DNA of 64,000 nucleotides from an uncultured Prevotella sp. (GCF_946407605.1 NZ_CAMJOS010000016.1:20800-84799), one strand, 5' to 3'. Shown: positions 25,545-56,698, numbered from the stretch's first letter. Translations and numbers: made by a program. Notes: generated by a model from the sequence alone, not told the origin.

Positions 25545-25551
25545 CACTGTT

Positions 25552-35171: not shown

Positions 35172-35201
35172 GAGTTTGTTTTAAGCATTCGATTTTCGAT
35201 G

Positions 35202-35209
35202 CAAAGGTA
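35202..35209 (-). promoter_or_regulatory. -7 box TAccTTTG (minus strand) for psd-pssA
   Basis: Consensus match 31 nt upstream of the psd ATG. Confidence 0.5.
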
Positions 35210-35528: not shown

Positions 35529-35798
35529 TAGTCTGAGAACACTAGTTTCCAATTAAAAATTTGTTGAGAAAATACAGGTTTTTCCGACATTCATTTTTTG
35601 GCTAACTTATATATGAGAAAGTACAAAGATACAAAAATTAATCAGAATTTATTTAGAATGCCATAACCTATTGATAATAAAGAATTTAGTCAATGTTGTA
35701 AAATTGTTAACCGGACACTAATGGATGAAAAAAATAATTTTTTTCTTTAGAAATTTAAAAAAGTTACTTAAAAACTTGTGAGTTTAAATATTTTTTAA

Positions 35799-35806
35799 TA
35801 TATTTG
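35799..35806 (+). promoter_or_regulatory. -7 box TAtaTTTG, candidate promoter of the giant-protein operon
   Basis: Consensus match with CTTG at 35775-35778, 20 nt upstream. This predicts a leader of about 110 nt before the ATG at 35923. Confidence 0.45.
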
Positions 35807-35821
35807 CAGCCTAAAGCCTAA

Positions 35822-35838
35822 TTTGTGTCCGACACAAA
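35822..35838 (+). promoter_or_regulatory. 17-bp palindrome TTTGTGTC-C-GACACAAA just downstream of the candidate operon promoter
   Basis: Perfect 8-bp arms, flanked by two AAAGCCTAA copies (35813-35821 and 35861-35869). Confidence 0.5.
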
Positions 35839-35922
35839 AACCTAAAATGTGGTTAGCCACAAAGCCTAAAGCGAATTTTTATACAATTTATTAACAATAA
35901 TATTAACTTAAAGCGATTAGTT

Positions 35923-38900
35923 ATGAAAGTATTTACAAAGTACCTATTGACCTTGCTGTTGCTAGGCATCGCAAGCGTTGTAAATGCTCAAGAATCGGAG
36001 GCGTTATTAGCTGATGGTACCTATTACATTAAGAATGTTGCATCTGGCAACTTCTTTACTGGTGCAAACAATTGGGGTACTCAGGCTTCAGTAGCTCCTT
36101 CTGGTGCTCCCTTCGAAGTAACATTGTTGCCCGAGGGTGGTTATTCTTTGAAGTATTTGCTCTCTACTGTAGACAACACGCACCTGGGTTCTAACCTCTA
36201 TGTTGACTCACAAACACCTGATGGTGGTTTTGCTATCGAGAAGAATGAGGATGATACCTTCGTTATCAAGCTCGATGGCAAGTATCTAGCTGAGGGTACG
36301 GAAACAGGTCCCACCAACGATGCAATTGTTGTTCAGACTGAAGAACTGACTGCTGCTGCCAAGTGGCAGTTCATAACTATTGATGAGGCTGTTGCTGCTA
36401 TGAAGCAAACGGCTCCTGCTAATGCAACGTTCTTGATTAGCAATCCGAACTTCAACCGCAACACCAGCACCGCAGCTTGGACTGTAAGTGCTGATTGCAC
36501 CAACAGGAACTTGGGCGGTGGTGGCACTGGCAACTTCTGTGCTGAGTCATACCATTCAACATTTACCATTTCTCAGGTTCTTGCCAACGCTCCTGCTGGT
36601 AGATATATGATGACTGCTCAGGGCTTCTATCGTCAGGATGATGATCTCAACGAGGATGCACCTGTATTTTTTGCCAATGACAAGTCTGTTGCTATTCCTG
36701 TCAAGACTGGTTCTGAGAATTCCATGACTGATGCTTCTAATTCATTCACAGCAGGAGCATACACCATTGAGCCTTTCGAGTTCACCGTATTCGAGGATGG
36801 TCAGTTGACCATTGGCGTAAAGGGAACGTCAACAAGTCAGTGGGTCATTTGGGATAACTTCCAGTTGACTTATCTGTCAAGCGAGGTTCCTGCCGATGAG
36901 TTCGAACCTGCATATCAGAACGCTCTGGCAGCTGCTATTGATGCTCTGGAGAATGAGGATTATTCAGTTGTTGATGGTATTGAAAGGGAAAACCTTGAGA
37001 ATGCAATTAATATATATAGTGAAGTGGAAGGTTCTCAGGCTGCCTATGAGGAAGCCATCAAAGCTTTGGTTGCTGCAACCAATGCCTATGTGGCTGCCGC
37101 TCCTGCTTATCTGGCCTTTGGCGAGGCTCAGGCACAGTTGGCAGCTTGCCAGATCATGTATCCTTATGCTTCTGAAGAGAAGTTGGCCGCTGCTAAGCAG
37201 GTTGGCTTGATTACCATCGAGAATGCTGAGCAGGCCGAGGAGATGGCCGTTCGTCTGTTGATGCTTTGCCGTCAGGTGGCAGAGTCGAGTGCTCTGCTCG
37301 AAGGTGTTGAGGGTTCTCACGTCCTGACAGAACTCATCCAGAATCCTAATGCAGAATACGGAACCGATGGCTGGGAGTTCATCCTTGAAGATGGCACTAG
37401 CGGACGTGTTGATATTCTGAGCAATGAGCCACTTACCGATGGTGATGGCAACTCTGATTATCGTTACTTCGATGGCATTAACTGGAGTTCTGACTATTGG
37501 AATGGAAGTCTCCAGCAGATGATTACACTTCCTGCAGGTAGATATCTGCTCACCGTCAGCGGTCGTGCTTCATCAGATGTGATGATGTCCGTCTTTGCAG
37601 GCGAGGACAATGAAGAGATGATCTTCGGCGAAGGTGCTACTGGTGGTTTGTATGGAAGAGGCTGGAACGATGTTTCTGTAGAATTTGAACTGGACGAGGC
37701 TTCTAATATATATATAGGTGTAAGAGGTGAGGCTTCTACTATCCACCAGTGGATGTCGTTCACTCGCTTCCGCCTGGCTCAGTTTGAGGGTGATGCTGTA
37801 CCTGTTGAAGATGATCCTGAGCTCGAGGCTCCTGAGGGTTGGACCAACTTGATTGCCAATGGTAACTTGGCTGGCGATAACGTAGAGAGCTTCATCTCTA
37901 AGGAGTGGCCTTCTGAGGAAATGGTTGGTGCACGCATTGTTGATGGCGCTGGTTTTAACGGCAGCCGCGGTATCTTGGTAAGCACACCTGACGAGACAGA
38001 CTTTGGAGATGCTCAGAGCTGGGACAGCCAGTTCTGGATTAATCTGAACAAGGCTCTGCCAGCAGGTACTATCCTGCATGTTGAGTTTGACTATGCAGCT
38101 AGCGATTACTCTTGGGCTTCCACTCAGGCTCATGGTGAGCCAAGTGTGTACCAGCATTGGGTTTGCCTCGGTAACGTTGAATTCGCTCAGGAGTGGCAGC
38201 ACTTCTCTACCGACATTGAAGTCAGCGAAGAAATGGCAAAGGGTGGTAACGGTGACGGTATTGGTCTGAAGAGCATTGCCTTCATGCTGAATGAAGATAA
38301 GAATGCTGTTGACTATTACTTCGATAACTTCGGCGTTTGGGCTCAGTTGCCTAATGTTGTTAAAATTCCTTCTGTTGTATTCACCTATCCAGAAGCATCT
38401 TCATTCAATGTTGATGGTGGCACAATGGAGTTCCATGTTAACTTCGATATGCCTGTTGACGCCGAGCAAATCCATGCTACACTCGACAATGAGGAACTCA
38501 CTGTGATTGCTGATGGGTCGATTGTATGGCTGGCCCGTCAGGGTGACGTAGAAGACATGACTGATGGCGAGCACACCATCAAACTGTATAGTATCTATGC
38601 TGAAGGTTGGGAAGACGAGGATGCCTATACAAATTATGAATTCTCATTCGTCGTAGGTCCGATTAATCTTGATCCTGAAGCTAAGGCTGAAGTCATCCTG
38701 GCTGACAATCTGTGGGATGCTACTGAGGAGGGTGGAATTCCTGAAGGTTATCTTGTGAACTTCAATGGTGAGGAACGTAATTCTGAAAGTCAGTATAGTT
38801 CTGGTGCCCGTATGTTCGTCTTTGCAGAAGGTGGTGACTTCACTCATGGTCTCTACTTCCGCGAGGGCTATACCCAGTATGGAGGCTACGAAGACTATCC

Positions 38901-41115
38901 GCTTTACCTCGAGGCAGGCAAGAAGTACACCATTAACTTCAAGTCGGCTATGTGGAAAGATAGCGGAACTACAATGAATTTCCAGATTCTGTCTGCTGAT
39001 GAAGATTATTTGGTATACGAAGAGGTTATTAAGAATAATCCTAACGTGAATGGTAGTAAGGCTGCCGTAACTGATGCTACGAACACTACCATCGCATTCA
39101 CTCCTCAGGAAGATGGTAATTACATACTGCGCTGGGCAGTTGACGGCTTCAACGAGGTGCTGCTGGCTAATCCTACTGTGAAGTATATGACTGATGATGT
39201 CAACGAGAATGTTTTGGCATTCTTCGCTGCACTTGAGAACGCTAAGCAGGTGCGTGATGCCAATGCTGACTTTACAAATAATGGAGAATATGCTAATCTG
39301 GACGATGTCATTAACTGGTATGAGAGTGAGTACAAGTACTTCAATAATTTTGACCAGTTCTTGGAGGCAGCAAAAGATCTTGAGAATGTTGCCTATTATA
39401 TGAAGGAGTATCGCAGACTGTATCAGGAATACTATCCGTTGGCAGAGACTATGCTGGCTCTGCGTCAGCAGTATGCAGACACCAAGTTTACTCAGAGCTA
39501 TATTTATAACTATTATCTTATTAGGTGCATCGATAACTATGCTCCTTATGGTGAAATCCTTGATCAGTACAACCTCGGTAGCCTCTCAAATGCATATTCT
39601 GACATTAAGTATGCTGTGAATATGGTACAGGATATGTTCACAGAAGGTCCTTCGCAAGTCACGATGACTGGTTATGCTGTGCTGAAAGAGCGTGTCCGTC
39701 AGGGTGCTGAGACCATGCGTACGCTGGGTATCGATAATGAAGACCTGCTGTGGGATGCAGAGAATATTCTTGATGAGGAGGAATGGCTGGTCGATGAGAT
39801 GAAGCAGAGCATCAAGAAGGATATCTATAAGAAGCTGAGCAAGGCTGACAACACCCTGTTCGATCCTATTATCGACGAGGCTACGCTTGAAGAGATTACT
39901 CCTGCTTACAACATGAATATCTTTGTAGAGAATCCAAACATCTACAAGTGGGGTTACTCTGATAAGGACTTCAGCGTTCCTGGTTGGTATGTTGAAAATG
40001 CAAATGTATCTACTGGTTGGGTTAACTATGACAGTTGGGAAGTTCCTGCCGACGCTATGTTCTCTAACTGGGGTAATTTCTTCGAAGTAGCTCAGAGTAT
40101 TGGAGACCTGCCTGCAGGCACTTATACCGTGAAGTTCGCAGTTGGTGAGCGTCAGGAAGATACTTACACTGATTCTAAGGCTTATGTATATACCGGAAAT
40201 GAAGAGTATTATGCTGACATCGACTACATTGGTCAGACCTTCCCAGAGTTCAGCGTTAACAATGGTATCGTTACTATCGAGAACGTGGTTGTAACTGATG
40301 GTTGGATGCAGTTTGGTGTCCTGGCAGAGTCTGGTTCTCACCTGTTCTTCAACGAAGTACAACTGCTGCTCACAGCTCCTGCTCCTGGCTACGACTACTA
40401 TGATGAAAGCGAAGTGCTGGTGGGCGACGTGAACCTCGACGGCGAGGTGACCACCTCTGACGCTGTGGCTACCGTTGGTCTCGTACTCGATGATTGGCAG
40501 CCTAGCTACAGACAGTTCCGTGCTGCTGATGTGAACTACTCTTATAACATCACCGTTTCTGACGTGGTGGGCGTTGTGAATATCGCACTCAACGGCTATG
40601 AGTGGTATAGAGCACTGGCCCGCAGTCAGTCGATGGAGCAAGAGATTAACTACCTCACTCAGGACGCTAACAAGATTGGTCTGAACAACACCACCGAGTT
40701 TGTGGCATTCCAGATGGATGTAACGCTGGCTGATGGTGCTATGCTCAACGGCGTGAACCTGAACCAGCGTGCTAATGGTCTGAATATCAGATATAGCCAC
40801 CTGGAGGGTAACACCTACCGTATCATGGCCTTCTCGATGAATATGGCTGCTATCACGGGCAATGAGGGTGAACTCCTCTCGCTCGATATTACTGGCAACC
40901 AGACCGTAACACTCAGCAACATCGAATTCACCGATACTGCTGCACGTGCTTATGCTCTCGGCGTGAACGACGCTACTGGCATCAACGGCATCATGGCTGG
41001 CGACGCCAATGCTGACTACTACACTGTTGACGGTGTGAAGAGCAACAAGATGCGTAAGGGCATGAATGTTGTGAAGACTGCCGACGGCAAGGTACGTAAG
41101 ATGTTCGTGAAGTAA
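35923..41115 (+). CDS. Giant secreted modular protein 1 (1730 aa): lectin-like, CBM-like, dockerin-like and cohesin-like modules
   Basis: Signal peptide (ASVVNA|QE). Beta-trefoil-like module at aa 30-155 (ends KWQF). Three copies of an unassigned module at aa 170-318, 470-620 and 1333-1485. CBM4/9-like region at aa 638-808 and Ig-like region at aa 815-912. Helical spacers, a dockerin-like pair at aa 1498-1557, a cohesin-like module at aa 1575-1680, and a basic C-terminal tail. Confidence 0.85.
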   Translation: MKVFTKYLLTLLLLGIASVVNAQESEALLADGTYYIKNVASGNFFTGANNWGTQASVAPSGAPFEVTLLPEGGYSLKYLLSTVDNTHLGSNLYVDSQTPDGGFAIEKNEDDTFVIKLDGKYLAEGTETGPTNDAIVVQTEELTAAAKWQFITIDEAVAAMKQTAPANATFLISNPNFNRNTSTAAWTVSADCTNRNLGGGGTGNFCAESYHSTFTISQVLANAPAGRYMMTAQGFYRQDDDLNEDAPVFFANDKSVAIPVKTGSENSMTDASNSFTAGAYTIEPFEFTVFEDGQLTIGVKGTSTSQWVIWDNFQLTYLSSEVPADEFEPAYQNALAAAIDALENEDYSVVDGIERENLENAINIYSEVEGSQAAYEEAIKALVAATNAYVAAAPAYLAFGEAQAQLAACQIMYPYASEEKLAAAKQVGLITIENAEQAEEMAVRLLMLCRQVAESSALLEGVEGSHVLTELIQNPNAEYGTDGWEFILEDGTSGRVDILSNEPLTDGDGNSDYRYFDGINWSSDYWNGSLQQMITLPAGRYLLTVSGRASSDVMMSVFAGEDNEEMIFGEGATGGLYGRGWNDVSVEFELDEASNIYIGVRGEASTIHQWMSFTRFRLAQFEGDAVPVEDDPELEAPEGWTNLIANGNLAGDNVESFISKEWPSEEMVGARIVDGAGFNGSRGILVSTPDETDFGDAQSWDSQFWINLNKALPAGTILHVEFDYAASDYSWASTQAHGEPSVYQHWVCLGNVEFAQEWQHFSTDIEVSEEMAKGGNGDGIGLKSIAFMLNEDKNAVDYYFDNFGVWAQLPNVVKIPSVVFTYPEASSFNVDGGTMEFHVNFDMPVDAEQIHATLDNEELTVIADGSIVWLARQGDVEDMTDGEHTIKLYSIYAEGWEDEDAYTNYEFSFVVGPINLDPEAKAEVILADNLWDATEEGGIPEGYLVNFNGEERNSESQYSSGARMFVFAEGGDFTHGLYFREGYTQYGGYEDYPLYLEAGKKYTINFKSAMWKDSGTTMNFQILSADEDYLVYEEVIKNNPNVNGSKAAVTDATNTTIAFTPQEDGNYILRWAVDGFNEVLLANPTVKYMTDDVNENVLAFFAALENAKQVRDANADFTNNGEYANLDDVINWYESEYKYFNNFDQFLEAAKDLENVAYYMKEYRRLYQEYYPLAETMLALRQQYADTKFTQSYIYNYYLIRCIDNYAPYGEILDQYNLGSLSNAYSDIKYAVNMVQDMFTEGPSQVTMTGYAVLKERVRQGAETMRTLGIDNEDLLWDAENILDEEEWLVDEMKQSIKKDIYKKLSKADNTLFDPIIDEATLEEITPAYNMNIFVENPNIYKWGYSDKDFSVPGWYVENANVSTGWVNYDSWEVPADAMFSNWGNFFEVAQSIGDLPAGTYTVKFAVGERQEDTYTDSKAYVYTGNEEYYADIDYIGQTFPEFSVNNGIVTIENVVVTDGWMQFGVLAESGSHLFFNEVQLLLTAPAPGYDYYDESEVLVGDVNLDGEVTTSDAVATVGLVLDDWQPSYRQFRAADVNYSYNITVSDVVGVVNIALNGYEWYRALARSQSMEQEINYLTQDANKIGLNNTTEFVAFQMDVTLADGAMLNGVNLNQRANGLNIRYSHLEGNTYRIMAFSMNMAAITGNEGELLSLDITGNQTVTLSNIEFTDTAARAYALGVNDATGINGIMAGDANADYYTVDGVKSNKMRKGMNVVKTADGKVRKMFVK
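40414..40593 (+). other. Dockerin-like module (two Ca-binding loop/helix repeats) in protein 1
   Basis: GDVNLDGEVTTSDAVATVGLVL and ADVNYSYNITVSDVVGVVNIAL. Both fit the D-x-N-x-(D/S)-x6-D loop followed by a hydrophobic helix, spaced as in type-I dockerins. Confidence 0.65.
40645..40962 (+). other. Cohesin-like beta-sandwich module at the C-terminus of protein 1
   Basis: FVAFQMDVTLADGAMLNGV...TYRIMAFSMNMAAITGNEGELLSLDITG...VTLSNIEFTD aligns by eye with the protein 2 N-terminal module and with the cohesin g.qfdi.yd pattern. Confidence 0.5.
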
Positions 41116-41144
41116 ATTATTGATAATCTAAAAACTTAAACGAT

Positions 41145-44100
41145 ATGAAACACAAAGGTATTTTTAAGAGGTTGTCGCTATTGACCCTCTTGTTGATTGC
41201 CGGCTTCACGAGCGCTATGGCACAGTCGCTCTATATGGAAGGCTTTAAGATCAACGCCGGTGACACCAAGACCGTAACGGTTGCTCTGGCCACTGATGGC
41301 TACGACATCTATGGTCTGCAAACCGATATTGTGCTGAGTAATGGACTATACCTCGATGGCGACCCAGTCGCCGTCGAGGGGGCCATGGCAGACCCTAATC
41401 CCAGCATCAGCTGCAAGTGGATGGACAACAAAACCATCCGTGTGGTGATGTTATCGTTGAATGCCAAGGTCTTTATGCCTGGTAAAACAAACGTCATCCA
41501 GCTTAATGTGGGATGCACAGAGAATTTCGTTGGTGGAACTATTAAGCTGACGAATTCTCGTCTCACCATTAGTAATTATGGTGATGAGGTTTATGTTTCT
41601 AACTTCTCTGCCAAGATTACTACTGATCAAGAGGTTCAGATTCCTGAGGGCGTCTGGGGTGACATTCCTGAGCCACAGGGTCTGGAGTTTGTCGATGAGA
41701 TTAGTTTCGATGGTTCTTGGTATTATCTCTACAACCCCGAAGGCAAAAGATTCTTCGCCAGCGGCAACGAGTGGAGTACTCGTGCCAGCCTGGCCCAGTT
41801 TGGCTATCCCGTTTGGTTCCAAGAGGCTACTGAGCCTGATGCTCCTGAAGGTTCTTACGAGTTCTGGGATGTGGTAGAACACCCTGACCGTTATCTGGGT
41901 GAGAATAATATTTTCACTGACTATGATGGTGGAACATGGGTGGACCATGGTTCACAGGACAACTACTCTTGGTTTGTGATACCTGTTGGCGATGGCTTCT
42001 ATCGTCTGCAGAATGCTTCATTGATTCAGAGAGATGAAAACTATGAGGGCAGATACCTGGGATGGAACGGTACTGGTGATAACCGCCTGTATATGATTTA
42101 TCCAGAGGAAGGTCATGCTGTTGACTGGAGGTTCGTAACCTATGACTCTTATCAGAATTTCATTAGTTCTGAAGAATATTATGAATATTCACAACTTGCA
42201 GAAAATGGCGCTCTTGGTCAAAGGTTGTATGAGCTTTTGGTTGATGCTAAAGAGTTGGACATCAATATTGTTAGGTGGCTGGAGGTTTATATGAATACTG
42301 ATAGCAGCTATGGTGAACTACAGAGTGCTATCAGCGAGATTTCCACCTATATTAGTTATAAGATCCGCCTGAGAGATGCTGTCGAGATGGCTGCTGAAGT
42401 TCGCGTTGATGTTTCTGAGTATCAAGGCGTTTACGATAATCCTGAAGCAGAGTTGGAGGAGATGGAAAATGCCTATTATAATGTGCAGGATGCCATCGAC
42501 GTCATGAATAACTTCTTGAATCTTGTTGAAAAGTCACGCGAAATGCTGACCATGCCTGACTTCCAGGGATTGGATGCGACTCAGGAGCTGGCCGATTATC
42601 TGAATGGCGAACTGGCAAAGTTGCTCGAAGCCACGATGACCCGTGAGGAGATCTATATGGCTACTGAGACAATCAAGAATCTGAGAGAGATCATGATCGA
42701 GGAGTCGAAGGGTGTGGTTTATGATGGTAAGGATGTGACCTACCTGATAGAGAACCCAGGATTCGATGATGATTGGAATATCGACTCTGGTTCTGCAGAA
42801 GGTTGGAATATTGACAACTATTCTGGAAGAACTCTGACTCGTGGTCCTCTCGGACAGAACAATAAGGACCTGATGGAGAATGCCCTTGGCTATATGAACT
42901 ACTGCTTCGAGGCTTGGCACAACTACAACTGGGATGTATGGCAGGAGTTGACTAATCTGCCTGTTGGTATGTACGAGTTGCAGGTTCAGGGTTATGTACG
43001 TTGCGAGGTTCCTGGATATACCCGTGGTGATGATATCAATCCTAACTATCCTTCACCCGTATACCTCTATATGAATAACGCTCTGAGCTCATTCCCAAGT
43101 GTTTATTCTGAGAGCCCTGCCGACTATGGTAAGGAAATGGTTGAGGTTGAGTCTTGGTATCAGGAGGAAGTCAATGGCAACTTCTATCCCAACTCAATGG
43201 GTGCTGCTGCACAGTGCTTTGGCTGGGGTATGTATAAGACCACTGCCTATGGTTTGATAGCAAGAGAAGGTGATATCTTCCGTATTGGTGTGAAGATGAA
43301 CAAGAATCAGGACTGGTGGTGTATCTTTGATAACTTCAAGTTGACATATCGCACCCCGACTGCTGAAATCGTACAGCCAATCCTTGAAACTGAACTGGCT
43401 AAGTTGGATCTTTCTCGTCCTATGGGTAAAGATATCTATGAGTTGATTTCAAATTTGAAGACTACTGCCCAGAATGCTATTGATGCACAGGATGGACAGG
43501 TTATGTTCAATGTCCTGACTCAGGCTTATGACTTGAATGCTGATTATTTGGAGTCGGTAGCTCTGTTTGTAGAACTGCAGCGTGCTGTTGATACCTTCGT
43601 TGAGGCTATTAATAGATCAGAGAATCAGGATGCTATTAATCAGGCAGACGCTCTGGCAGGTGAAATCTATAATGGTATTAATAACCATACCATCTATGAC
43701 AATCAGGTTTATGAGTACATCGATCAGATGAACAACCTGTATACTGCTTTGGCTTTGCCTGCTGACTGGGCAAGTGCTTCTGACAAGAATCCTATCGATC
43801 TGACAGCTGTTATCAAGAATCCGAGTTTCGAGAACGAGTGGGGTGAGAGTACTGACGAGGGTTGGATGAATCCTGGTAATCTGGGTAACGACGACATTCA
43901 GCGTTCTGCTCTTGCTATGGAGTTCTGGGAGACAGATTACAATATGTATCAGGATATCCAGGGACTGCCCGAGGGTACCTACATGATAACTGTTGATGCT
44001 TGGGACCGTGTTGGTTACAATGAAAACAACTACTATTCTTGGCTTGAAGACAATCGCTACACTAATTCTTACCTTTATGGTATGAATGGCGATGGCAAAG

Positions 44101-46718: not shown

Positions 46719-46755
46719 GGAAAATGTATTCTAGGACATAAAAAACAATGTCATT

Positions 46756-49700: not shown

Positions 49701-52593
49701 CGTAAAGGTTTATGTTGATGACGTGATGCTGGGACAGACCGTGGCTCTGGCTAACGGTTCTTGGGCAACGACCGTCGAACTGGATAATCCTGAGAGTCCG
49801 TCAGTACACAATGTGTATGCAGTGGTGACCACTCAGCAGGGTGCAGAGATGGTTTCTGAGACCCAGCAGGTGAAGTACGATGAGGATGCTATCCAGGTGG
49901 AAGGCGTGACCATGTACTATACTAACCCAGAAGAGAACTGGTGGCAGGGTAAGAACTACGAGTTGCTGTTCAACTTCCTTACGCCGTCGGTAGTGCCTCT
50001 GCGTTATACCTATTATATATATAACCGTTCGTTCACCTTCGCTATCCGCTTCAACAATAATGATGCTTCAATCATTACCAAAGTGATTCTGGAAGTGAAG
50101 ACTGGTGATGGTGTGTGGAATCCGTTGGAGGCCGTCTACAACGCTAATAAGGGTTGCTGGATTGCCTATGGCGAGTTCGGTAATATGTATGATGGTATTG
50201 TACCAGTCAATGTACGTGTAAGATACTGGATTGGAGGTTATGAGTACTTGGTTATCTATCCTGGACCGAACTGCGATGTGCCTATCGACCCGTCAGGCTA
50301 TGTCTACGAGGCTGTAAGCACCAACCGTGTACAGGGTGTCACCGCTACTATCTATTATAAGGAGACGGTGGAAGACCAGTATGGCGACCTGCATGAGAAT
50401 ATCGTGCTCTGGAATGCTGAGGAGTATGCTCAGGAGAACCCGCTGTTCACTGATGAGAATGGTATGTATCGCTGGGATGTTCCTCAGGGATTATGGCAGG
50501 TGAAGTTCGAGAAGGAAGGTTATCAGACCGTCTACTCAGAATGGCTGCCCGTGCCTCCGCCACAGCTCGACGTGAACATTGCCATTATTCAGCTGATGCA
50601 GCCTCAGGTGCTGAAGGCCAGTGCTTCGAAGGATGGCGTGGAGATTGAGTTCGACAAGTTCATGGATATCGAGACACTGAATACCGATAACATCGAAGTA
50701 ACATGCAACGGTGAGAAGGTTGAAGGTAAGATCGAACTCGTCAATGAGGAGAATGTCAGCGAGGATAGTGAGCAGACCTACGCTTCGAAGGTTCGCTTCG
50801 CACTACTTGATGACAAGGAACTGCTTCCTACCGACGAGGTAACCATCTCTGTCAAGAGCTTGGTGAAGAGCTATGCCGGCGTGACGATGCAGGATAACTT
50901 CTCTCAGGACTTCGAGGTCGTGAAGAAGGTACGTAGCATCTCTACTTCTGACAATGAGGTGAACGTGGCATTCGGTGGTCAGCGTACGCTGAAGGTGGCT
51001 GCATTGCCTGCTGACGCCTCAAAGGGTAAGAAACTCACTGTGAAGTCGCTCTCTGCTGCTATTGCCAAGACAACTGTCAACGAAATGACACTTGATGAAA
51101 ATGGTGAGGCAGAGATCGTGATTACTGGTGAGATGCCTGGTCAGACTGTCCTGACCTTCAAGGTTGAGGGTGTGGACGATGTGGAAGGTCGTCTGACTGT
51201 CAATGTGAAGGATGAGGCTCGACTGATAACGATTGCTCCGAAGGCCTCACGTGTCTCTGGCACAGAAGTCTATCGCGGCACTCAGATTCATCTGAGCAGT
51301 GAGACAGAGAGCGCAGTCATTTATTATACACTCGATGGCTCTGAACCTACAGATCTGTCTATCAAGTATGATGACGAGGCTCCTATCACGATTGCTAATG
51401 ACATCACAATCAAGGCTATTGCTAAGGGTCATGACCTGCTCGATAGTGAGGTGAAGACATTCACTTATACGTTGAAGCGTACAACCGTTGGTTATCAGAT
51501 GCCAGAGGGTTGGTCGTGGATCTCACACAATCTGGAAGAGCCCGTGGCTGCCAATGCGTTCAAGGAGAATGCTGAGCGTATCATGAGTCAGACTCAGGAG
51601 TTGATCAATGATCCTGTGGCCGGTCTGGTGGGTAACCTTACTGAACTGCTGCCTACCGAGGCTTATAAGGTGAAGGTTTCTGCTCAGACAGTTAACAGCC
51701 TGCAGGGCTTTGAGTTCAACGCTACGACAAGCACTGTACCTGTAGAGATTGGTTGGAACTGGATTGGCTATCCTGTCAACCAGGTGATGACCATCGACGA
51801 GGTATTTGAGTTCTTCGGTGCTCAGGAAGGCGACTATGTGCTGGGTCAGGATGGCTTCGCAGAGTATGTGGATGGCCAGTGGAAGGGTACCCTCGAGGGC
51901 ATGAAGCCTGGTCAGGGTTATCTCTACAAGTCATCGGTGAAGGGCGAGCTGCTGTTCAATACCACGATTGTATCTAATGCTGCAAGTCGTGTGGGTAAGT
52001 TCAACTACCTGATGAACAGCCCGTGGGCTCCCGCCAAGTACGCTTATCCTGATGTGATGCCGTTGACGGCTCACCTCTATGACGGTGGTGTGAAGGTAAA
52101 TGCCGATGAGTATGTGGTTGGCGCATTCGCTGGTACCGAGTGCCGTGGCGTGGGCATCTGGAAGGATGACCGACTGCTGATGAGCATCTACGGACAACCT
52201 GGCGACGAGATCACCTTCGTGGCCATTCAGACCGCTACAGGTAACTGCTATGACCTGACAGAGCAGATGGGCTTCCAGGCTGACAATGTCGGCACATGGA
52301 GCATGCCGTCGACACTGACTATCGGTGGTCAGGTAACAGGTATTGAGAAGATGTACGACAAACTGACTGTGACACCTGCCGTGGCTCGCGATTATATCAT
52401 CGTTTCTGCTGGCGGTCATGAGATCAGCAACCTCACTCTGACTAATATGAGTGGTAAGAACGTGCTGTCACTCTCTAACCTGGGAAAGAGCGCCACTGTT
52501 ACTACAGGTCAGTTGCCGGCTGGTGTCTATATCGCCACTGTGCAGGCTAATGGCAAGTCGTACTACAAGAAGATTTTGAAAGTTAATAAATAA
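46756..52593 (+). CDS. Giant secreted adhesin-like protein 3 (1945 aa) with a T9SS type-A C-terminal domain
   Basis: Signal peptide. Two divergent InlB-B-repeat-like units at aa 34-108 and 123-197. LRR_5-like region at aa 240-365, followed by a long array of beta-sandwich, CarboxypepD_reg-like and Ig-like domains. Big_2-like region at aa 1392-1485 and CHB_HEX_C_1-like region at aa 1492-1573. GWNWIGYP module at aa 1580-1735, ECRGVG domain at aa 1760-1858, and CTD at aa 1868-1945. Confidence 0.85.
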   Translation: MNRLLSIFVLWLCQLALFAQAGSADSIPGPDLGTYELTLKSSPQGVAGFNYSNKSQILAGSRIWVYAYVQDNFVLDYWLMNNEQVPSEGYGIEFTMPENDVTLTAVCHYDPMSPENPQAVGERYWVTLESQPKGAGSFNWAEKTKCEEGKIYTVIAYNRYGFDFKGWKNSEEQWISFDQSYKFTMPSQAITLTAVYEYNPQNPGNPRKNYFNEETGEVIIDDFNPGDLWSAFWEVTQGNYEGVKSITVAGMVEDWDWYIANESRSCTTLDFSRTNATFIPSWQFEGNGTLETIMLPASLESIEWCAFYNCTALSTIGCHAVVPPVVDPTAFDGVNPDMVTVYVPSKSVSLYQAADVWKDFTILPFQEEVKSLTVGLPEEEAPLYKDMYIELLNLKNGQRMRYVITDRVVYTFYNLLQNTSYNVYLKNAQDFVLGEIDNVEIVDKDKSVTFENLLVPRKVLAKVLTPEGADVTEKATVIWSSDKGVFMTRGTELANQLRGTMVKVSVQLSQELAMKYLMVPDSLYEVRDAADNVVNITLEEIPQLTIGGLVRNVKTEQPLAGATISVSQMLNGLYSQAFTTKTNEQGQWSQKVFAAPTEVTASKTNFVSQSLAMPTPLVEVPTFDLKDINGTMIYLNVTYTDVDGNTKNSYDDMSNVTFAVYNEATGEQYTEMNLQFPQIVLMDSHAQGTQLRVVATSKNEKFMPVEVVGTVGANDRADVTVAIKQLGGIKATYIRTDNPTVVGILYDSNGRLVKKYDYSEKSLTISDLKDGNYTLVTMAGSQFFNSIYTIGQFTESGLRQGVDYMKNNVAVKSGKMTNVANQIIPYLDETKLYYTSDNTSFSVNKNQITAGQYLTVSAHLDFKSKYVSGISDVKLIVGLPEQSSFVDNSVMYGNATIGYTYADHVVTIPLDSYDERIRFCFIPLAGGEYSAAAAVQFTFDGRTITQPIGNASFTVKNLSLTVPAVVASTKVPVSGTAMSKATVKVYVDDVMLGQTVALANGSWATTVELDNPESPSVHNVYAVVTTQQGAEMVSETQQVKYDEDAIQVEGVTMYYTNPEENWWQGKNYELLFNFLTPSVVPLRYTYYIYNRSFTFAIRFNNNDASIITKVILEVKTGDGVWNPLEAVYNANKGCWIAYGEFGNMYDGIVPVNVRVRYWIGGYEYLVIYPGPNCDVPIDPSGYVYEAVSTNRVQGVTATIYYKETVEDQYGDLHENIVLWNAEEYAQENPLFTDENGMYRWDVPQGLWQVKFEKEGYQTVYSEWLPVPPPQLDVNIAIIQLMQPQVLKASASKDGVEIEFDKFMDIETLNTDNIEVTCNGEKVEGKIELVNEENVSEDSEQTYASKVRFALLDDKELLPTDEVTISVKSLVKSYAGVTMQDNFSQDFEVVKKVRSISTSDNEVNVAFGGQRTLKVAALPADASKGKKLTVKSLSAAIAKTTVNEMTLDENGEAEIVITGEMPGQTVLTFKVEGVDDVEGRLTVNVKDEARLITIAPKASRVSGTEVYRGTQIHLSSETESAVIYYTLDGSEPTDLSIKYDDEAPITIANDITIKAIAKGHDLLDSEVKTFTYTLKRTTVGYQMPEGWSWISHNLEEPVAANAFKENAERIMSQTQELINDPVAGLVGNLTELLPTEAYKVKVSAQTVNSLQGFEFNATTSTVPVEIGWNWIGYPVNQVMTIDEVFEFFGAQEGDYVLGQDGFAEYVDGQWKGTLEGMKPGQGYLYKSSVKGELLFNTTIVSNAASRVGKFNYLMNSPWAPAKYAYPDVMPLTAHLYDGGVKVNADEYVVGAFAGTECRGVGIWKDDRLLMSIYGQPGDEITFVAIQTATGNCYDLTEQMGFQADNVGTWSMPSTLTIGGQVTGIEKMYDKLTVTPAVARDYIIVSAGGHEISNLTLTNMSGKNVLSLSNLGKSATVTTGQLPAGVYIATVQANGKSYYKKILKVNK
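52357..52590 (+). other. T9SS type-A C-terminal sorting domain of protein 3
   Basis: LTVTPAVARDYIIVSAGGHEISNLTLTNMSGKNVLSLSNLGKSATVTTGQLPAGVYIATVQANGKSYYKKILKVNK matches the Por_Secre_tail pattern. Confidence 0.75.
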
Positions 52594-52605
52594 ACGATTC
52601 CGACC

Positions 52606-55600
52606 ATGACAAAGTTCATTGAAAAAATACTGGTATGTCTGATTATGGCACTGTGGGCTCCGGCCCTCAGTGCCCAGACGCACTTCACTTTTGATTACCG
52701 CCAGTACCAATACGATATGACAGTCTACTTCGTGTTGAAAAACAATAGTCAGCTTGTTGAAAGTCCAGCTGATAAATACGAGGTGGGTGCTATCGTAAAC
52801 GATGAGTGTCGTGGCGTGGGTGAGTTTGTTGATACTCAAGACGCCAGCGGGCAGCCATTGAAGTACGGTTATCTGCGTGTTTACAGCAATGTGAAAGAAG
52901 GAGAATTTGTTATCTTCAAGTTATATGACAAGGCGACGGGAAAAGTGGCAGAGGTGACCGACGAGAGTTTCGCTTTCACACCTGATGCCGTTATCGGCAT
53001 GCCATCTACCCCTCGTGTCTTTAACGTTGACAAAGCTGTAATCTATTGTACTGTTGAAGTGAATTCGGCTAACCCCGAAATGGGAACAGTGAAAGGTGGC
53101 GGTGTATGTGTTGAGGGCGTTCCTGTGACGCTGACCGCAAAACCTGTTGAGGGTCACGTATTCGTCAAATGGTCTGACGGATCAACTGACAACCCCTATG
53201 TATATGTTCCAACGGGTAATGCAGAATTGACTGCTACGTTTGCTATTGGAAAGTACACCATGACATTCGTGAAGGATAATGGTCAGGAAAATGAGGTGTT
53301 GGCAGACCTTGAGTATAACACACCTCTGGCTGCGCCGGCAAACTTCCGAAAGAAGGGTTTTACTTTCTTAGGATGGGAACCTGAAGTGCCAGAGACGGTA
53401 CCAGGACAGGATATGATCTTCACGGCACAGTGGGAGCGTAACCACTATAAAGTGACGTGGGTGATTGAAGGTGAGAGCACCGAGGTGGACTATGCCTATG
53501 AGGATGTTCTCAACATCCCAGCAGTTCCTGCAAAGACTGGTTATAGTTTTGCCGGATGGTCGCCTGAAGTACCTGAGACCATGCCTGCTCAGGATGCTAC
53601 CTATACAGCTCAGTATGCAATCAATCAGTATGCGATGACGTTCGTCCTTGACAACGGTGAAGAAAATCTCGTTATCAAGCAGGACTATAACTCTGTATTG
53701 ACGGCTCCTGCCGACCCGGAGAAGGAAGGCTTCACGTTTGCTGGATGGGATATGGAGATTCCAGAAAATATCCCTGCTACAAACATGACGTTTACTGCCC
53801 AGTGGGAACGCAATAGCTATACCGTGACGTGGGTTGTTGACGGACAAAGCAAGAGCTCAACTCTGCTGTATGATACACCTATTGCCCAGCCGGCAGATCC
53901 TGAAAAGGAAGGTTATACCTTCAAGGGCTGGACACCTGTCGTGCCAGAGCGTATGCCAGCAGAGGATGTGATCTACACGGCCATGTTTGGTGTCAATACT
54001 TATGCCATTGTATATGTAATTAATGGTAAAGAAGAACATCGCGACTCGCTGAACTATGGACAGCTCATCAGTCTTTGGAATTATGTTCCTCAGAATGATG
54101 ACATCTTCAATGGTTGGAAGTGTGATCAGGCTGAGTTGTATACCACAGTACCTGCGCACGACGTTTACTTCTGGGACGAATTGACACCTGTTTACACTAT
54201 CACAGTGTCTTCGGCCGATGAAGAGAAGGGTACTGTGATTGGTGGCGGTAAGTATGCCAAAGGTACATTTGTTACGCTGACAGCAAAGCCCAATGAGGGA
54301 TATCAGTTCGTTAGCTGGTCTAACGAAACTGCAGTGAATCCTTATGTCTTTGCTCCTACTCAAGACTCGACATTGACGGCTACTTTCGCACCGAAGTCCT
54401 ATAACATGACATTCGTGCTGGATAATGGTTCGAATGATGTCGTCATACCACAGCTCTATAACACAGCGTTGACGGAACCTGATGACGTGAAGAAGGAAGG
54501 CTTTACCTTCAAAGGTTGGAATCCTGCTTTGCCAGAAAAGGTTCCTGCTACTGACATGACATTCACCGCCATTTGGGAGCGCAACAACTACAAGTTGACT
54601 TGGGTCGTTGACGGCGTTAGCACCGAGTCGACTGTGGCATACGATTCTTATATCACCCTGCCGGAAGACCCCGCGAAGGAAGGCTTTACTTTCACAGGAT
54701 GGGATCCTACCGTTCCTGAGAAGATGCCAGCTGCAGACCAGACGTTCACTGCTAAATGGCAGCGTAACACCTACAAAGTGACGTGGATTGTTGATGGTGA
54801 GGCCACTGTAGTTGAGTATGACTATGAGGCTGATATTAACAAACCGACAGATCCAGAGAAGGAAGGCTTTACTTTCACAGGCTGGAGTCCTGAGGTGCCT
54901 GAGAAGACTCCCGCATCTGACCTGACATTTACCGCTCAGTGGCAGCGTAACAGCTACAAGCTGACGTGGGTGGTCGATACGGTGAGCACCGAGTCTGTGG
55001 TTCCGTTCGAATCCTTTATCATTAAGCCTGCTGATCCTGAGAAGGAAGGATTCACATTCACTGGATGGGATCCTGCCGTTCCAGAGCAGATGCCAGCATC
55101 AGACCAGACGTTTACTGCTCAGTGGTCACGTAACCATTATAAGGTGACGTGGATTATTGAGGGCGTGAGCACCGAGGTTGATTATGCTTATGAAGACAGC
55201 ATCAAGAAGCCTGCTGATCCTGTAAAGGTTGGCTATACCTTCCTGGGTTGGTCACCTGAGGTGGCAGAGACGATGCCGGCACAGGATTTGAGATATACTG
55301 CACGTTTCGCTATCAACTCGTATGCGATGACCTTCGTACTCGGTAATGGTGAGGAGGATGTGGTTATCACTCAGGAGTATATGACACCGCTGACAGCTCC
55401 AGAGAATCCTACAAAGACTGGATGCACCTTCTTGGGCTGGAATCCTGAAGTGCCTGACAGCATTCCTGCATCTGACATGACATTCACTGCCCAATGGCAG
55501 CCCAATACCTATAAGGTGACATGGATTGTTGAAGGTCAGTCAACGGTGAAGGAAGTGGTCTATGGAACTCCTATAGAGAAACCGACAGACCCGACGAAGG

Positions 55601-56586
55601 AAGGTTATACTTTTACCGGTTGGACACCAGAGATACCTGATTCCATGCCTGCTAACGACCTGACATTCACAGCTCAGTTCTCGATTAACCAGTACAAGAT
55701 GACGTTTGTCTTCGACAATGGTGCTGAGGATGTCGTGAAGACTCAGGATTATGGTACTGATTTGACGGCTCCTGCCGACCCGGAGAAGGTTGGCTTCACG
55801 TTCAAGGGTTGGAATCCTGCTGTACCTGCAACGGTACCTGCATCTGATATGACGTTCACTGCTCAGTGGGAACGTAATATCTATAAGGTGACATGGATTG
55901 TCGAAGGTCAGTCAACGGTGAAGGATGTTGCTTACGGTGCTCCCATCGAGAAACCGACAGATCCGACAAAGGAAGGTTATACCTTTATTGGTTGGACTCC
56001 AGAGGTGCCTGTGACGATGCCTGCTAACGACCTGACATTCACAGCTCAGTTCTCGATTAACCAGTACAAGATGACGTTTGTCTTCGACAATGGTGCTGAG
56101 GATGTCGTGAAGACTCAGGATTATGGTACTGATTTGACGGCTCCTGCCGCCCCGGAGAAGGTAGGCTTCACGTTCAAAGGCTGGGATCCAGCTGTTCCTG
56201 CCACAGTTCCTGCAAAGGATATGACATTCACCGCCCAGTGGGATCGTAATGTCTATGCTGTTATCTATATGGTACATGGCAAGGAATGGCAGCGTGATAG
56301 CTTGGCATACGAGGCTCCCATCCAGCTGCGTACTTATAGTGAGGACGGCTGGACCTTCAATGGCTGGGTAAGCGATGCTACCTATGTAACTATGCCTGCT
56401 CATGATGTGGTTTACACTGCAGATATTACGTCTGGCATTGCCACCATCCTTGCTGGCAAGTCGGAAGTGGATGTTTACACGCTTCAGGGCCGTCTGGTAG
56501 CTCGCAGAATGCCTGTGGCTCAGATTCGCAAGACCTTGCCTCGTGGTGTCTATATCATTGAAGGAACGAAGGTGGTCATCAGATGA
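52606..56586 (+). CDS. Giant secreted protein 4 (1326 aa) with 16 Listeria-Bacteroides (InlB B-type) repeats and a short T9SS-like CTD
   Basis: Signal peptide (PALSA|QT). ECRGVG domain at aa 26-142. Two divergent B-repeats at aa 146-214 and 530-595. Sixteen 61-63-aa repeats of the form Y.(V/M)T(W/F)V...G(F/Y)TF.GW.P..P..MP..D..FTA.W. The C-terminus reads VDVYTLQGRLVARR...GVYIIEGTKVVIR. Confidence 0.88.
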   Translation: MTKFIEKILVCLIMALWAPALSAQTHFTFDYRQYQYDMTVYFVLKNNSQLVESPADKYEVGAIVNDECRGVGEFVDTQDASGQPLKYGYLRVYSNVKEGEFVIFKLYDKATGKVAEVTDESFAFTPDAVIGMPSTPRVFNVDKAVIYCTVEVNSANPEMGTVKGGGVCVEGVPVTLTAKPVEGHVFVKWSDGSTDNPYVYVPTGNAELTATFAIGKYTMTFVKDNGQENEVLADLEYNTPLAAPANFRKKGFTFLGWEPEVPETVPGQDMIFTAQWERNHYKVTWVIEGESTEVDYAYEDVLNIPAVPAKTGYSFAGWSPEVPETMPAQDATYTAQYAINQYAMTFVLDNGEENLVIKQDYNSVLTAPADPEKEGFTFAGWDMEIPENIPATNMTFTAQWERNSYTVTWVVDGQSKSSTLLYDTPIAQPADPEKEGYTFKGWTPVVPERMPAEDVIYTAMFGVNTYAIVYVINGKEEHRDSLNYGQLISLWNYVPQNDDIFNGWKCDQAELYTTVPAHDVYFWDELTPVYTITVSSADEEKGTVIGGGKYAKGTFVTLTAKPNEGYQFVSWSNETAVNPYVFAPTQDSTLTATFAPKSYNMTFVLDNGSNDVVIPQLYNTALTEPDDVKKEGFTFKGWNPALPEKVPATDMTFTAIWERNNYKLTWVVDGVSTESTVAYDSYITLPEDPAKEGFTFTGWDPTVPEKMPAADQTFTAKWQRNTYKVTWIVDGEATVVEYDYEADINKPTDPEKEGFTFTGWSPEVPEKTPASDLTFTAQWQRNSYKLTWVVDTVSTESVVPFESFIIKPADPEKEGFTFTGWDPAVPEQMPASDQTFTAQWSRNHYKVTWIIEGVSTEVDYAYEDSIKKPADPVKVGYTFLGWSPEVAETMPAQDLRYTARFAINSYAMTFVLGNGEEDVVITQEYMTPLTAPENPTKTGCTFLGWNPEVPDSIPASDMTFTAQWQPNTYKVTWIVEGQSTVKEVVYGTPIEKPTDPTKEGYTFTGWTPEIPDSMPANDLTFTAQFSINQYKMTFVFDNGAEDVVKTQDYGTDLTAPADPEKVGFTFKGWNPAVPATVPASDMTFTAQWERNIYKVTWIVEGQSTVKDVAYGAPIEKPTDPTKEGYTFIGWTPEVPVTMPANDLTFTAQFSINQYKMTFVFDNGAEDVVKTQDYGTDLTAPAAPEKVGFTFKGWDPAVPATVPAKDMTFTAQWDRNVYAVIYMVHGKEWQRDSLAYEAPIQLRTYSEDGWTFNGWVSDATYVTMPAHDVVYTADITSGIATILAGKSEVDVYTLQGRLVARRMPVAQIRKTLPRGVYIIEGTKVVIR
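53254..56430 (+). repeat. Coding array of 16 Listeria-Bacteroides repeats (183-189 nt each), interrupted by one divergent B-repeat at 54193-54390
   Basis: Repeat boundaries were counted by hand from the translation. The first unit starts at Tyr217 (TAC at 53254). Confidence 0.85.
55510..56253 (+). repeat. Two tandem 372-bp copies (55510-55881 and 55882-56253), each spanning two protein repeats
   Basis: A hand alignment gives about 40 mismatches in 372 nt, all outside a 133-nt perfectly identical core (55645-55777 = 56017-56149). Confidence 0.9.
56434..56583 (+). other. Short T9SS-like C-terminal domain of protein 4
   Basis: SEVDVYTLQGRLVARRMPVAQIRKTLPRGVYIIEGTKVVIR resembles the last strands of type-A CTDs. 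Confidence 0.55.
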
Positions 56587-56634: not shown

Positions 56635-56668
56635 AGACGGATGCAGAATATTTTTCCTGCATCCGTCT
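56635..56668 (+). terminator. Rho-independent terminator ending the giant-protein operon
   Basis: AGACGGATGCAG-(10 nt)-CTGCATCCGTCT perfect 12-bp stem followed by TGTTTGTTT, 49 nt after the protein 4 stop. Confidence 0.8.
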
Positions 56669-56690: not shown

Positions 56691-56698
56691 TAACTTTG
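56691..56698 (+). promoter_or_regulatory. -7 box TAacTTTG for dnaE
   Basis: Consensus match 49 nt upstream of the ATG at 56748. Confidence 0.5.

Follow-up and report, generated by a model that had tools for sequence, protein, structure and literature searches.

A lineage-specific four-gene locus of rumen Prevotella predicted to encode giant non-catalytic, surface-anchored binding proteins with a possible dockerin-cohesin link

Prevotella dominates the rumen, where its attachment to feed particles is poorly understood and where it is usually described through polysaccharide utilisation loci (PULs) and free enzymes. Giant multi-modular type IX secretion system (T9SS) cargo, encoded independently of PULs, is known in rumen Bacteroidota from 'Candidatus Paraporphyromonas polyenzymogenes' (PMC5831590). 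In Prevotella intermedia, short forms of the T9SS C-terminal domain (CTD), 40-55 amino acids (aa) long, were found by mass spectrometry in a 2025 study to be cleaved and glycosylated like the long ones, and P. intermedia was called the only species observed with short CTDs (PMC11969387). Outside cellulose degradation, cohesin-dockerin contacts join secreted proteins non-covalently in Clostridium perfringens, while orphan dockerins were noted in rumen Prevotella in 2016, with no partners (PMC6487960), and surveys that screen for cohesins by PF00963 only have been published (PMC9763041). Here, we describe four consecutive genes, G1 to G4, located in a stretch of 64,000 nt from an uncultured Prevotella sp. 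(the window, from whose first letter all coordinates are counted). Their best explanation, which we favour with some reserve, is an inserted surface operon of non-catalytic T9SS binding proteins with a dockerin-cohesin link; one part of it, that the products are surface-anchored, non-catalytic T9SS binding proteins, appears likely in its own right from their sequences.

The elements that define the layout of the locus are the following.

35172-35922, plus strand: AT-rich leader before G1, 751 nt, non-coding, 28.5% GC
35446-35515, no strand assigned: three 22-nt direct repeats ending CTAGTTAGG, found by a repeat search of the leader
35799-35806, plus strand: candidate -7 promoter element TATATTTG, a TAnnTTTG consensus match 117 nt 5′ of the G1 start codon
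35923-41115, plus strand: G1, 1730 aa
41145-46718, plus strand: G2, 1857 aa
46756-52593, plus strand: G3, 1945 aa
52606-56586, plus strand: G4, 1326 aa
56635-56677, plus strand: intrinsic-terminator-like hairpin with a perfect 12-bp stem, a 10-nt loop and a T-rich run

The sizes of the four same-strand open reading frames (ORFs) and the gaps between them (29 nt for G1-G2, 37 nt for G2-G3 and 12 nt for G3-G4) match exactly those given in the initial annotation of this DNA. For two 60-nt lines of the leader about 20-23 percent GC had been counted there, a value that is right locally (the GC content of 60-nt windows lies between 11.7% and 43%, with 32% of the windows not exceeding 25%) and wrong as a mean; the leader is 97% conserved in the strain variant L001 and brings no Rfam family near threshold. 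The Bacteroidetes -7 promoter consensus is TAnnTTTG. A scan for matches to it found a single one on the plus strand of the leader and none in any of the three intergenic gaps; the motif also stands before psd on the minus strand (35202-35209) and before dnaE (TAACTTTG, 56691-56698), 3′ of the terminator hairpin. The arms of this hairpin (56635-56646 and 56657-56668) are followed by TTGTTTGTTT, and the perfect 12-bp stem that was said to close the gene set is indeed found after G4, though an automated terminator scan, which allows loops of up to 8 nt, had missed it. As the leader contains a single candidate promoter motif, the gaps contain no such motif and a terminator occurs once, the arrangement of the four genes is operon-like and fits a single transcription unit. 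The direct repeats are embedded in an imperfect 44-nt palindrome (35433-35522) about 300 nt 5′ of the candidate promoter and possibly represent a regulator-binding site.

All four proteins begin with a basic n-region, a hydrophobic core and an A/Q cleavage context, the predicted cuts (marked by the slash) being VNA/QE, AMA/QS, LFA/QA and LSA/QT in G1 to G4; the signal-peptide-like N-termini noted earlier can be specified as four Sec signal peptides with A/Q sites. Such cleavage in every protein fits the Bacteroidetes Q-rule, according to which signal peptidase I leaves an exposed Gln (PMC5837995). At the opposite end G3 carries a long CTD of type A (84 aa, aa 1862-1945), scoring 46.6 bits on TIGR04183 (cutoff 23) and 29.2 on PF18962 (cutoff 27), and it is the only one of the four to match the Por_Secre_tail model. 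The G4 tail reaches 18.5 bits on TIGR04183, under the cutoff of 23, and neither TIGR04183 nor PF18962 matches the tails of G1 and G2 in the Pfam and NCBIfam searches. These three proteins end as follows, lengths being counted from the T/GI or S/GI site to the C-terminus.

40978-41112, plus strand: G1 short T9SS CTD, 45 aa; AT/GI, YYTVDG, GMNV, KMFVK
46593-46715, plus strand: G2 short T9SS CTD, 41 aa; LT/GI, YYNLNG, GLYL, KVVVK
G4 aa 1277-1326, plus strand: G4 short T9SS CTD, 50 aa; TS/GI, VYTLQG, GVYI, KVVIR

Short CTDs of P. intermedia are cleaved at PT/GI, where the Ile is conserved; their motif B has the form Y..G, motif D reads GxY (GxN in a subgroup) before an aliphatic residue, and motif E places a basic residue at the C-terminus (PMC11969387). 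G1, G2 and G4 end in tails that agree with this class in length and in every listed motif, G1 falling into the GxN subgroup. These tails share homology with one another and with those found in about 147 of 184 G1 relatives (family consensus TGI...IYNLxGQKV..KGLYIxNGKKVVxK). Compared with the Protein Data Bank (PDB), the tail profile matches the RgpB CTD entries 5ag8, 5ag9, 7pq4 and 5hfs weakly (E 0.04-0.07) and the C-terminus of the rumen-metagenome arabinanase 4kca at E 3e-9; an AlphaFold2 (AF2) model of the G1 tail has three strands at a predicted local distance difference score (pLDDT) of only about 60. All four proteins are predicted T9SS cargo, G3 firmly by the curated model TIGR04183, and G1, G2 and G4 by the short-CTD motifs, which the curated models miss. 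Among the listed representatives of the G2 module family the short tail occurs in 111 of 150, and from its distribution short T9SS signals seem to be common across rumen Prevotellaceae, well beyond P. intermedia. TIGR04183 reaches E<0.01 on 2 of 31 short tails only, and together with PF18962 it misses nearly all short tails in rumen Prevotellaceae.

The proposed link between proteins concerns three modules on either side of the G1-G2 gap.

40399-40608, plus strand: G1 dockerin module, aa 1493-1562; two calcium-loop and helix repeats, GDVNLDGEVTTSD and ADVNYSYNITVSD
40642-40965, plus strand: G1 cohesin-fold module, aa 1574-1681; recognised by Foldseek and by jackhmmer homology to G2 27-178
41223-41678, plus strand: G2 N-terminal cohesin-fold module, aa 27-178, directly after the signal peptide; homologous to the G1 cohesin

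Type I dockerins are defined by D or N at positions 1, 3, 5 and 12 of the loops in tandem Ca2+-binding loop-helix repeats. In G1 these residues are D, N, D, D in GDVNLDGEVTTSD and D, N, S, D in ADVNYSYNITVSD, and the alignment of the module keeps the canonical duplicated Ca-loop pattern; PF00404 (Dockerin_1) is matched by the aligned relatives P0094, P0117, P0120, P0133, P0135, P0139, P0148, P0175 and P0179. The modelled G1 module superposes on 2ccl_B with a template-modelling (TM) score of 0.86 and a root-mean-square deviation (rmsd) of 1.2 Å at 30% identity (TM 0.81 for 4uyp_B and 0.79 for 4fl4_J), and judged by this model it is a type-I-like dockerin fold. The AF2 model of G1 1485-1730 (13 sequences, pLDDT 77.6, predicted TM score (pTM) 0.70) contains three helices, a nine-stranded sandwich and a three-stranded tail. 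Its best 26 PDB matches in Foldseek are all cohesins (E 1e-5 to 2e-3, target-normalised TM 0.43-0.62), among them 2xdh, 6kge_A, 2jh2, 5nrm_A, 4dh2 and 2vo8. When a profile of 22 members of the cohesin family was compared with the PDB, the four best matches were to the C. perfringens NagJ cohesin (2jh2, 2ozn, 2o4e and 2w1n; E 0.01-0.03, across the full domain). PF00963 (Cohesin) gave no match even at E<=10 for G1 1493-1693 or G2 27-178.

The order dockerin, cohesin, CTD is kept in 23 of 23 dockerin-bearing sequences of the set, about a dozen of which are distinct once near-identical alleles are set aside. Same-strand arrays of giant genes are frequent among relatives (L084, L085, L086, L087, L090), and eight junctions downstream of a dockerin-ending gene were examined in such arrays and in the window; at six of them the next gene opens with a signal peptide and a cohesin. 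Against the background frequency of such starts, 20 of 150 representatives of the G2 family (13%), this gives a binomial P of 1e-4, an optimistic value in that the junctions, being drawn from related arrays, are only partly independent. Homologues of G2-G4 were drawn from a cluster look-up, a representative search and a metagenome scan. The scan with G3 found orthologues at 55-56% identity in L089, L090, L092 and L093, each with a G2-like gene (two N-terminal cohesins, LRR (leucine-rich repeats), pre-CTD module, short CTD) before it and a G4-like gene after it; the gaps of this triad are 62 nt and 18-19 nt in L090 and L093, where unrelated genes, not dnaE, come after G4, and small dockerin-cohesin-CTD genes lie upstream in L090. 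The conserved order at other genomic sites marks the triad as a conserved unit with a variable leading gene: by these comparisons G2-G3-G4 is a conserved syntenic triad and G1 a fast-changing, strain-variable partner. In another strain locus, L091, identity to the window falls to 74% for the G1 dockerin and to 72% for the N-terminal cohesin of G2, beside modules at 93-100%, which is compatible with co-divergence in this single strain pair. The most likely wiring would be a Ca2+-dependent contact of the G1 dockerin with the N-terminal cohesin of G2, which we put forward tentatively from motifs, folds and gene order, its chances being rather below even.

Several observations weigh against the interpretation as a whole and against this contact in particular. 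On PF00404 the G1 dockerin itself scores 19.6 bits (E 0.001), under the cutoff of 22.9; Pfam detects no cohesin in G1 or G2, and the cohesin call rests on a 13-sequence AF2 model, TM values of 0.43-0.62 and a profile E of only 0.01. No gene of the T9SS machinery lies within the window, matches to TAnnTTTG occur within genes too, so that internal promoters are possible, and no fold is assigned to some 390 aa of G2, to much of G3 620-1500 or to G1 913-1095. The locus L093 shows no dockerin gene within its available sequence, at two of the eight junctions, both from L087, the downstream gene does not begin with a cohesin, neither cohesin nor dockerin is present in G3 or G4, and the G1 dockerin lies directly beside a cohesin of its own, with a pTM of 0.70 hinting at packing within one chain. 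The last of these points lead to the main rival, binding in cis: the G1 dockerin would bind the cohesin of G1, and the four products would be independent T9SS adhesins that share a transcript and form no inter-protein complex. The dockerin-cohesin clasp would then be a rigid base by the anchor, and the N-terminal cohesin-fold modules would be ordinary beta-sandwich binding or spacer domains. That every dockerin-bearing relative has both modules in a single chain, separated by 12 residues, speaks for such a clasp, as may the score of the three-module model, if read as fixed packing of dockerin on cohesin; the exceptional junctions and the absence of both modules from G3 and G4 point in the same direction. 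Independent proteins would not, however, readily account for cohesin-starting genes after dockerin-ending genes at 6 of 8 junctions over a 13% background, for the divergence of both the dockerin and the G2 cohesin in L091 beside well-kept modules, or for the order G2-G3-G4 kept across species, and we consider this rival somewhat unlikely. The initial annotation had gone further in the other direction, joining all four proteins in one complex; this was overstated, a link being plausible only between G1 and G2.

The remaining architecture of the proteins consists of modules of binding type and spacers.

G1, aa: signal peptide 1-22, beta-trefoil 24-151, jelly roll 153-320, helical bundle 324-457, jelly roll 463-623, CBM4/22-like roll (CBM, carbohydrate-binding module) 640-808, immunoglobulin (Ig)-like 818-911, low-confidence beta region 913-1095, helical region 1096-1317, jelly roll 1318-1485, then dockerin, cohesin and short CTD
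G2, aa: signal peptide 1-26, cohesin 27-178, beta-trefoil 183-332, helical region, jelly roll 524-738, helical region, jelly roll 871-1079, helical region, BspA-type LRR ~1220-1370, pre-CTD module, short CTD
45297-46499, plus strand: G2 pre-CTD module, aa 1385-1785, ~390 aa
G3, aa: signal peptide, two Flg_new_2, LRR_5 244-361, CarboxypepD_reg 545-611 and ~1226-1269, Ig-like stretches (weak), CHB_HEX_C_1/Fn3_assoc 1504-1571, domain X 1746-1861, long type A CTD 1862-1945
G4, aa: signal peptide, domain X 25-146, ~16 Listeria-Bacteroides / InlB B-type repeats 150-1270, short CTD

The AF2 model of G1 24-1095 (pLDDT 79, 35 sequences) matched in Foldseek CBM22, CBM4, CBM61, SGBP-B, the BT_4411 sugar-binding protein and accessory domains of GH101 (GH, glycoside hydrolase), and contained no catalytic core by model or by Foldseek; its beta-trefoil-like domain 24-151 is all-beta and scores only 17.7 bits on Pfam RicinB_lectin_2. 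Homology to the protoxins Cry1Ac, the top-ranked match, and Vip3 was rejected at TM 0.12 and rmsd 26-27 Å over ~960-1010 columns, these matches reflecting merely helical bundles alternating with CBM-like rolls. By jackhmmer, the jelly roll is present in three copies in G1, two in G2 and 458 in the about 500 sequences collected. G1 has more than 831 homologues, all giant 'hypothetical' Prevotella proteins with shuffled modules, some of which carry dockerin, CBM_4_9, CBM26 or RicinB domains at Pfam level. The LRR_5 family (PF13306) scores 24.2 bits in G2 and 27.2 in G3 with a cutoff of 27.7, and the repeats are backed by Bacteroides LRR structures 3sb4, 4fd0 and 4fdw (E 7e-6 to 9e-9 for G2 and G3, 3sb4 matching G2 at E 7e-6). 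In G4, Flg_new (PF09479) reaches 369.9 bits over 14 stretches, Flg_new_2 132 bits and TIGR02543 126.7 bits. Seen against the module list drawn up from the DNA alone, Flg_new, Flg_new_2, CarboxypepD_reg and CHB_HEX_C_1 are over threshold and Big_2 is weak (17 bits); the LRR claim falls just under the Pfam threshold with structural matches behind it, and dockerin, cohesin, beta-trefoil and CBM-like modules fail at Pfam threshold and are recovered by profile or structure evidence.

That list had named no enzyme, and in the parts tested none of the four proteins showed an enzyme family at threshold in Pfam, NCBIfam, PDB sequence or Foldseek searches, which leaves the statement that no catalytic signature is present intact. 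Matches of G4 to Asp_protease_2 and TIGR02281 were set aside as repeat artefacts (no significant stretch, no D[TS]GA motif, position inside the repeats); PIN_5, STAT1, PCNA, T4 gp9/10 and microRNA/PyrR matches were dismissed as weak chance similarities. In a catalytic locus, an undescribed glycoside hydrolase, lyase or protease would sit in the G2 pre-CTD module, G1 913-1095 or G3 ~620-1500, and the block would be a multi-modular set of T9SS enzymes such as rumen Bacteroidota are known to have. In favour of this reading, the pre-CTD module is strongly conserved, with some 40 positions invariant, D, E, R and W among them (NRSWNLIGNPYP, EAFFVQ.P, AINERP), matches 1718 representatives of 50%-identity clusters at E<=1e-3 (894 at E<=1e-30), so that at least 1718 clusters contain it, and its profile has no relative in Pfam or the PDB; GH67, GH43 and GH29 genes are also present in the window, and CBM26 or X25 modules in some relatives. 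The module, which always lies immediately ahead of a short CTD, follows, however, a BspA-type LRR in 124 of 150 representatives, so that its partner is almost always an adhesin domain and not a CBM, and the weak matches in the unassigned part of G3 are all Ig-like or carboxypeptidase-regulatory-like. With the enzyme searches empty as well, we hold a catalytic function to be improbable. From its conservation the pre-CTD module is a large uncharacterised domain family; it was looked for in G3 and is not present there.

G3 and G4 are connected by a second module of unassigned fold.

51991-52338, plus strand: G3 domain X, aa 1746-1861; recognised by BLASTP homology to the G4 N-terminal domain
52678-53043, plus strand: G4 domain X, aa 25-146

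Domain X (about 120 aa, with an invariant ECRGV motif) is common to all G3/G4 orthologue pairs (L089, L090, L091, L093), and by jackhmmer, in the roughly 500 sequences collected, it occurs only at the C-terminal ends of G3 orthologues and the N-terminal ends of G4 orthologues. It has no PDB match, and its identity as a third cohesin was ruled out (hhalign probability 0.1%). Its placement echoes that of the cohesin-fold modules at the C-terminal end of G1 and the N-terminal end of G2. Within the repeats of G4 a two-repeat unit is duplicated almost identically (window ~55660-56240, aa ~1020-1212, FSINQYKMTFVFDNGAEDVVKTQDYGTDLTAPA.PEKVGFTFKGW...), which suggests recent repeat expansion; in different strains the G4 allele measures 1313 or 1326 aa.

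Core genes flank the block, as was claimed before and is verified here, psd, pssA and a DUF4834 gene being located upstream on the minus strand and dnaE downstream on the plus strand. The closest relatives of the psd protein (76-91% identity) belong to rumen Prevotella/Xylanibacter metagenome-assembled genomes and isolates, including X. brevis ATCC 19188 and X. ruminicola. Among the 80 species representatives returned for psd, psd and dnaE are adjacent in about 68, dnaE starting ~120-550 bp from psd on the opposite strand; G1-G4 were found at this site in none of the 80, and unrelated genes are found at the loci where psd and dnaE are not adjacent. Related genomes have psd-dnaE spacers that can be aligned with only the left end of the leader, its first ~70 nt (the ancestral psd promoter region), and with the last ~60 nt 5′ of dnaE. 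Since only the outer ends align with ancestral spacers, the rest of the leader, the four genes and the terminator are read as inserted. Together with the adjacency of psd and dnaE in related species, this makes the block, on comparative evidence, a lineage-specific insertion of ~21.4 kb in rumen Prevotella of the Xylanibacter brevis/ruminicola group. No tRNA or flanking direct repeat was seen at its borders, where no dedicated tRNA scan was made, and neither an integrase or transposase beside the block nor any mobility gene among its neighbours was found, which bears out the earlier remark on mobility genes. A foreign-DNA signature was ruled out, the GC content of the block (48.0%) being close to that of dnaE (47.6%) and of the right flank (47.0%).

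Within this lineage the four genes vary to different degrees. At 90% identity the clusters have 30 members for G2, 50 for G3, 61 for G4, 42 for dnaE and 5 for G1, and by these counts the G2-G4 block is common within the species. The strain variant L001 is 97% identical in DNA over the flanks, G2 and G3, and in the 5′ half of G1 it is 91% identical with two module-sized indels. Alleles of G1 range from 1727 to 2182 aa; they are set apart by a further N-terminal module of 136 aa and, after residue 810, by one or two additional CBM-like rolls. Between L091 and the window, whose dnaE genes are 98% identical, module identities extend from 50% (helical spacers) to 99% (G2 beta-trefoil) or 100%. The fastest-diverging parts in this comparison are the helical spacers G2 aa 340-520 and 745-870 and G1 aa 1096-1317 (50-56%, the adjacent domains being at 80-99%), a pattern that indicates mosaic recombination or relaxed constraint. 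Such variation might be read as the purpose of the locus, G1 and the helical spacers being diversified against phage, protozoal predation or host antibody with binding specificity secondary; the five-member G1 cluster beside 30 to 61 for G2-G4 and dnaE, G1 alleles that differ by whole modules and the 50% to 100% spread of module identities all agree with this. The same pattern is, however, equally expected of adhesins that track different ligands, binding-type modules are conserved (beta-trefoil 99%, pre-CTD 92%, G3 middle 95%), and no shufflon, invertase or phase-variation repeat is present at the locus, so that a surface-variation device seems to us far from probable.

For the preferred reading, surface-anchored binding proteins, the ORFs, domain folds, CTD motifs, synteny and strain variation allow us to infer a course of co-transcription, secretion, anchoring, binding and, for part of the set, complex formation. 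Each protein would cross the inner membrane by Sec, signal peptidase I exposing Gln, and the outer membrane through the T9SS. PorU would cut off the C-terminal signals (45, 41, 84 and 50 aa) and join the new C-terminus to a surface glycan; as the C-terminus would be attached there, the C-terminal modules would lie at the cell surface, with the G1 cohesin adjoining the anchor after CTD cleavage, and the N-terminal modules would project outward. The outward parts would be ricin-type beta-trefoils, CBM4/22/61-like jelly rolls, BspA-type LRRs, Ig-like domains and the ~16 Listeria-Bacteroides repeats, held apart by helical bundles, and since these are binding modules the proteins are read as adhesins or glycan-capture proteins. 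Adhesion to, or glycan capture from, feed particles, host surfaces or other cells is the best-supported reading of their function from the modules predicted. A wider proposal is that rumen Prevotellaceae possess a T9SS-anchored, enzyme-free cohesin-dockerin system that daisy-chains giant lectin/CBM/LRR proteins into an adhesion scaffold. Cognate tandem pairs would consist of a gene ending in dockerin, cohesin and short CTD and a next gene starting with a cohesin; the cohesins would be too divergent for PF00963, which would explain the 'orphan' dockerins of rumen Bacteroidota, and domain X with its ECRGV motif might couple G3 to G4 likewise. We consider this scaffold conceivable but at present doubtful. 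If it were true, cohesin-dockerin assembly would extend to enzyme-free T9SS cargo of diderm bacteria, the Prevotella dockerins noted in 2016 would gain partners, and surveys based on PF00963 would be seen to undercount Bacteroidota cohesins. Should the modules fail to bind one another, what is left is a further adhesin island that varies between strains. The pre-CTD module and domain X are in any case two uncharacterised modules worth solving.

Other features were recorded in the window and in the loci of relatives. A hemicellulose-degradation cluster occupies 11362-21822 on the minus strand (GH67 alpha-glucuronidase, two GH43, GH29 alpha-L-fucosidase and a major facilitator superfamily transporter), an esterase of the SASA family lies at 25534-27507 by comparison with L001, and a resistance-nodulation-division efflux operon (HlyD, AcrB, OEP) at 3241-9090. 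The GH67, GH43 and GH29 genes are at least 14 kb upstream of the block, with several unrelated genes on both strands in between. A PUL is recognised by a SusC/SusD pair with linked carbohydrate-active enzymes; the block comprises the four genes only, next to psd/pssA and dnaE, and does not qualify as one. In L085 1-9899 (Prevotella sp. E15-22, CP096247.1), an array of a dockerin-ending and then a cohesin-starting gene stands directly 3′ of porU-porV, the genes 5′ of the array being porU (Peptidase_C25), porV, ispF and a gene for a small LytTR DNA-binding protein; by position L085 links the giant-gene family physically to T9SS genes and to a possible regulator. In L086 a DUF6364/PIN toxin-antitoxin-like pair (7234-7954) is immediately 5′ of a dockerin-then-cohesin pair of giant genes, whose proteins carry CBM26 and X25 starch-binding modules.

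The statement that no characterised equivalent of these proteins exists was too strong, as BspA-type LRR, Listeria-Bacteroides repeat, short-CTD and non-cellulosomal cohesin-dockerin proteins are all known, and more than 800 giant Prevotella paralogues have the modules of G1 in common. A full-text literature search found no account of cohesin-dockerin modules on T9SS cargo or of the dockerin-then-cohesin gene order, so that this wiring appears to be undescribed, whereas surface adhesins or glycan-capture proteins as such are of a known kind. BspA of Tannerella forsythia and other BspA-type LRR proteins are T9SS-exported surface adhesins with LRR and Ig-like domains, which G2 and G3 resemble in their LRR_5-type repeats and CTDs, the likeness resting on LRR_5 scores just under the Pfam threshold. 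To our knowledge BspA has no cohesin, beta-trefoil, jelly rolls or 390-aa pre-CTD module, all of which are present in G2. With Listeria internalin B-repeat proteins (Flg_new, TIGR02543) the locus shares the ~16 repeats of G4 and two of a divergent type in G3, but G4 is without an internalin LRR cap or LPXTG anchor and has instead a predicted T9SS CTD and domain X. The giant T9SS cargo of 'Ca. Paraporphyromonas polyenzymogenes' contains GH5 and GH9 catalytic modules (PMC5831590), of which none was found here.

Among cohesin-dockerin systems, the cellulosome and amylosome scaffoldins of Ruminococcus and Clostridia have the same type-I-like dockerins and nine-stranded cohesin folds; their adaptors carry both modules, and cognate components are often gene-clustered. 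Such assemblies place catalytic dockerin subunits on a multi-cohesin scaffoldin and are anchored by sortase or S-layer homology domains, whereas the four proteins include no dockerin-bearing enzyme and no multi-cohesin scaffoldin, G1 and G2 having one cohesin each to which PF00963 is blind, and their anchor is a predicted T9SS CTD. Another such pair, the NagJ cohesin and NagH dockerin of C. perfringens (2ozn, 2jh2), provides the best PDB profile matches to the cohesin-fold module; its partners belong to glycoside hydrolase toxins of a Gram-positive bacterium, unlike the enzyme-free, predicted T9SS cargo of a diderm described here, in which dockerin and cohesin also occur within one chain. As regards export, the known parallel is the short-CTD cargo of P. 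intermedia, whose 40-55-aa signals and motifs recur in G1, G2 and G4 (PMC11969387), with the difference that here they are predicted from sequence on giant proteins of 1300-1850 aa in rumen Prevotella.

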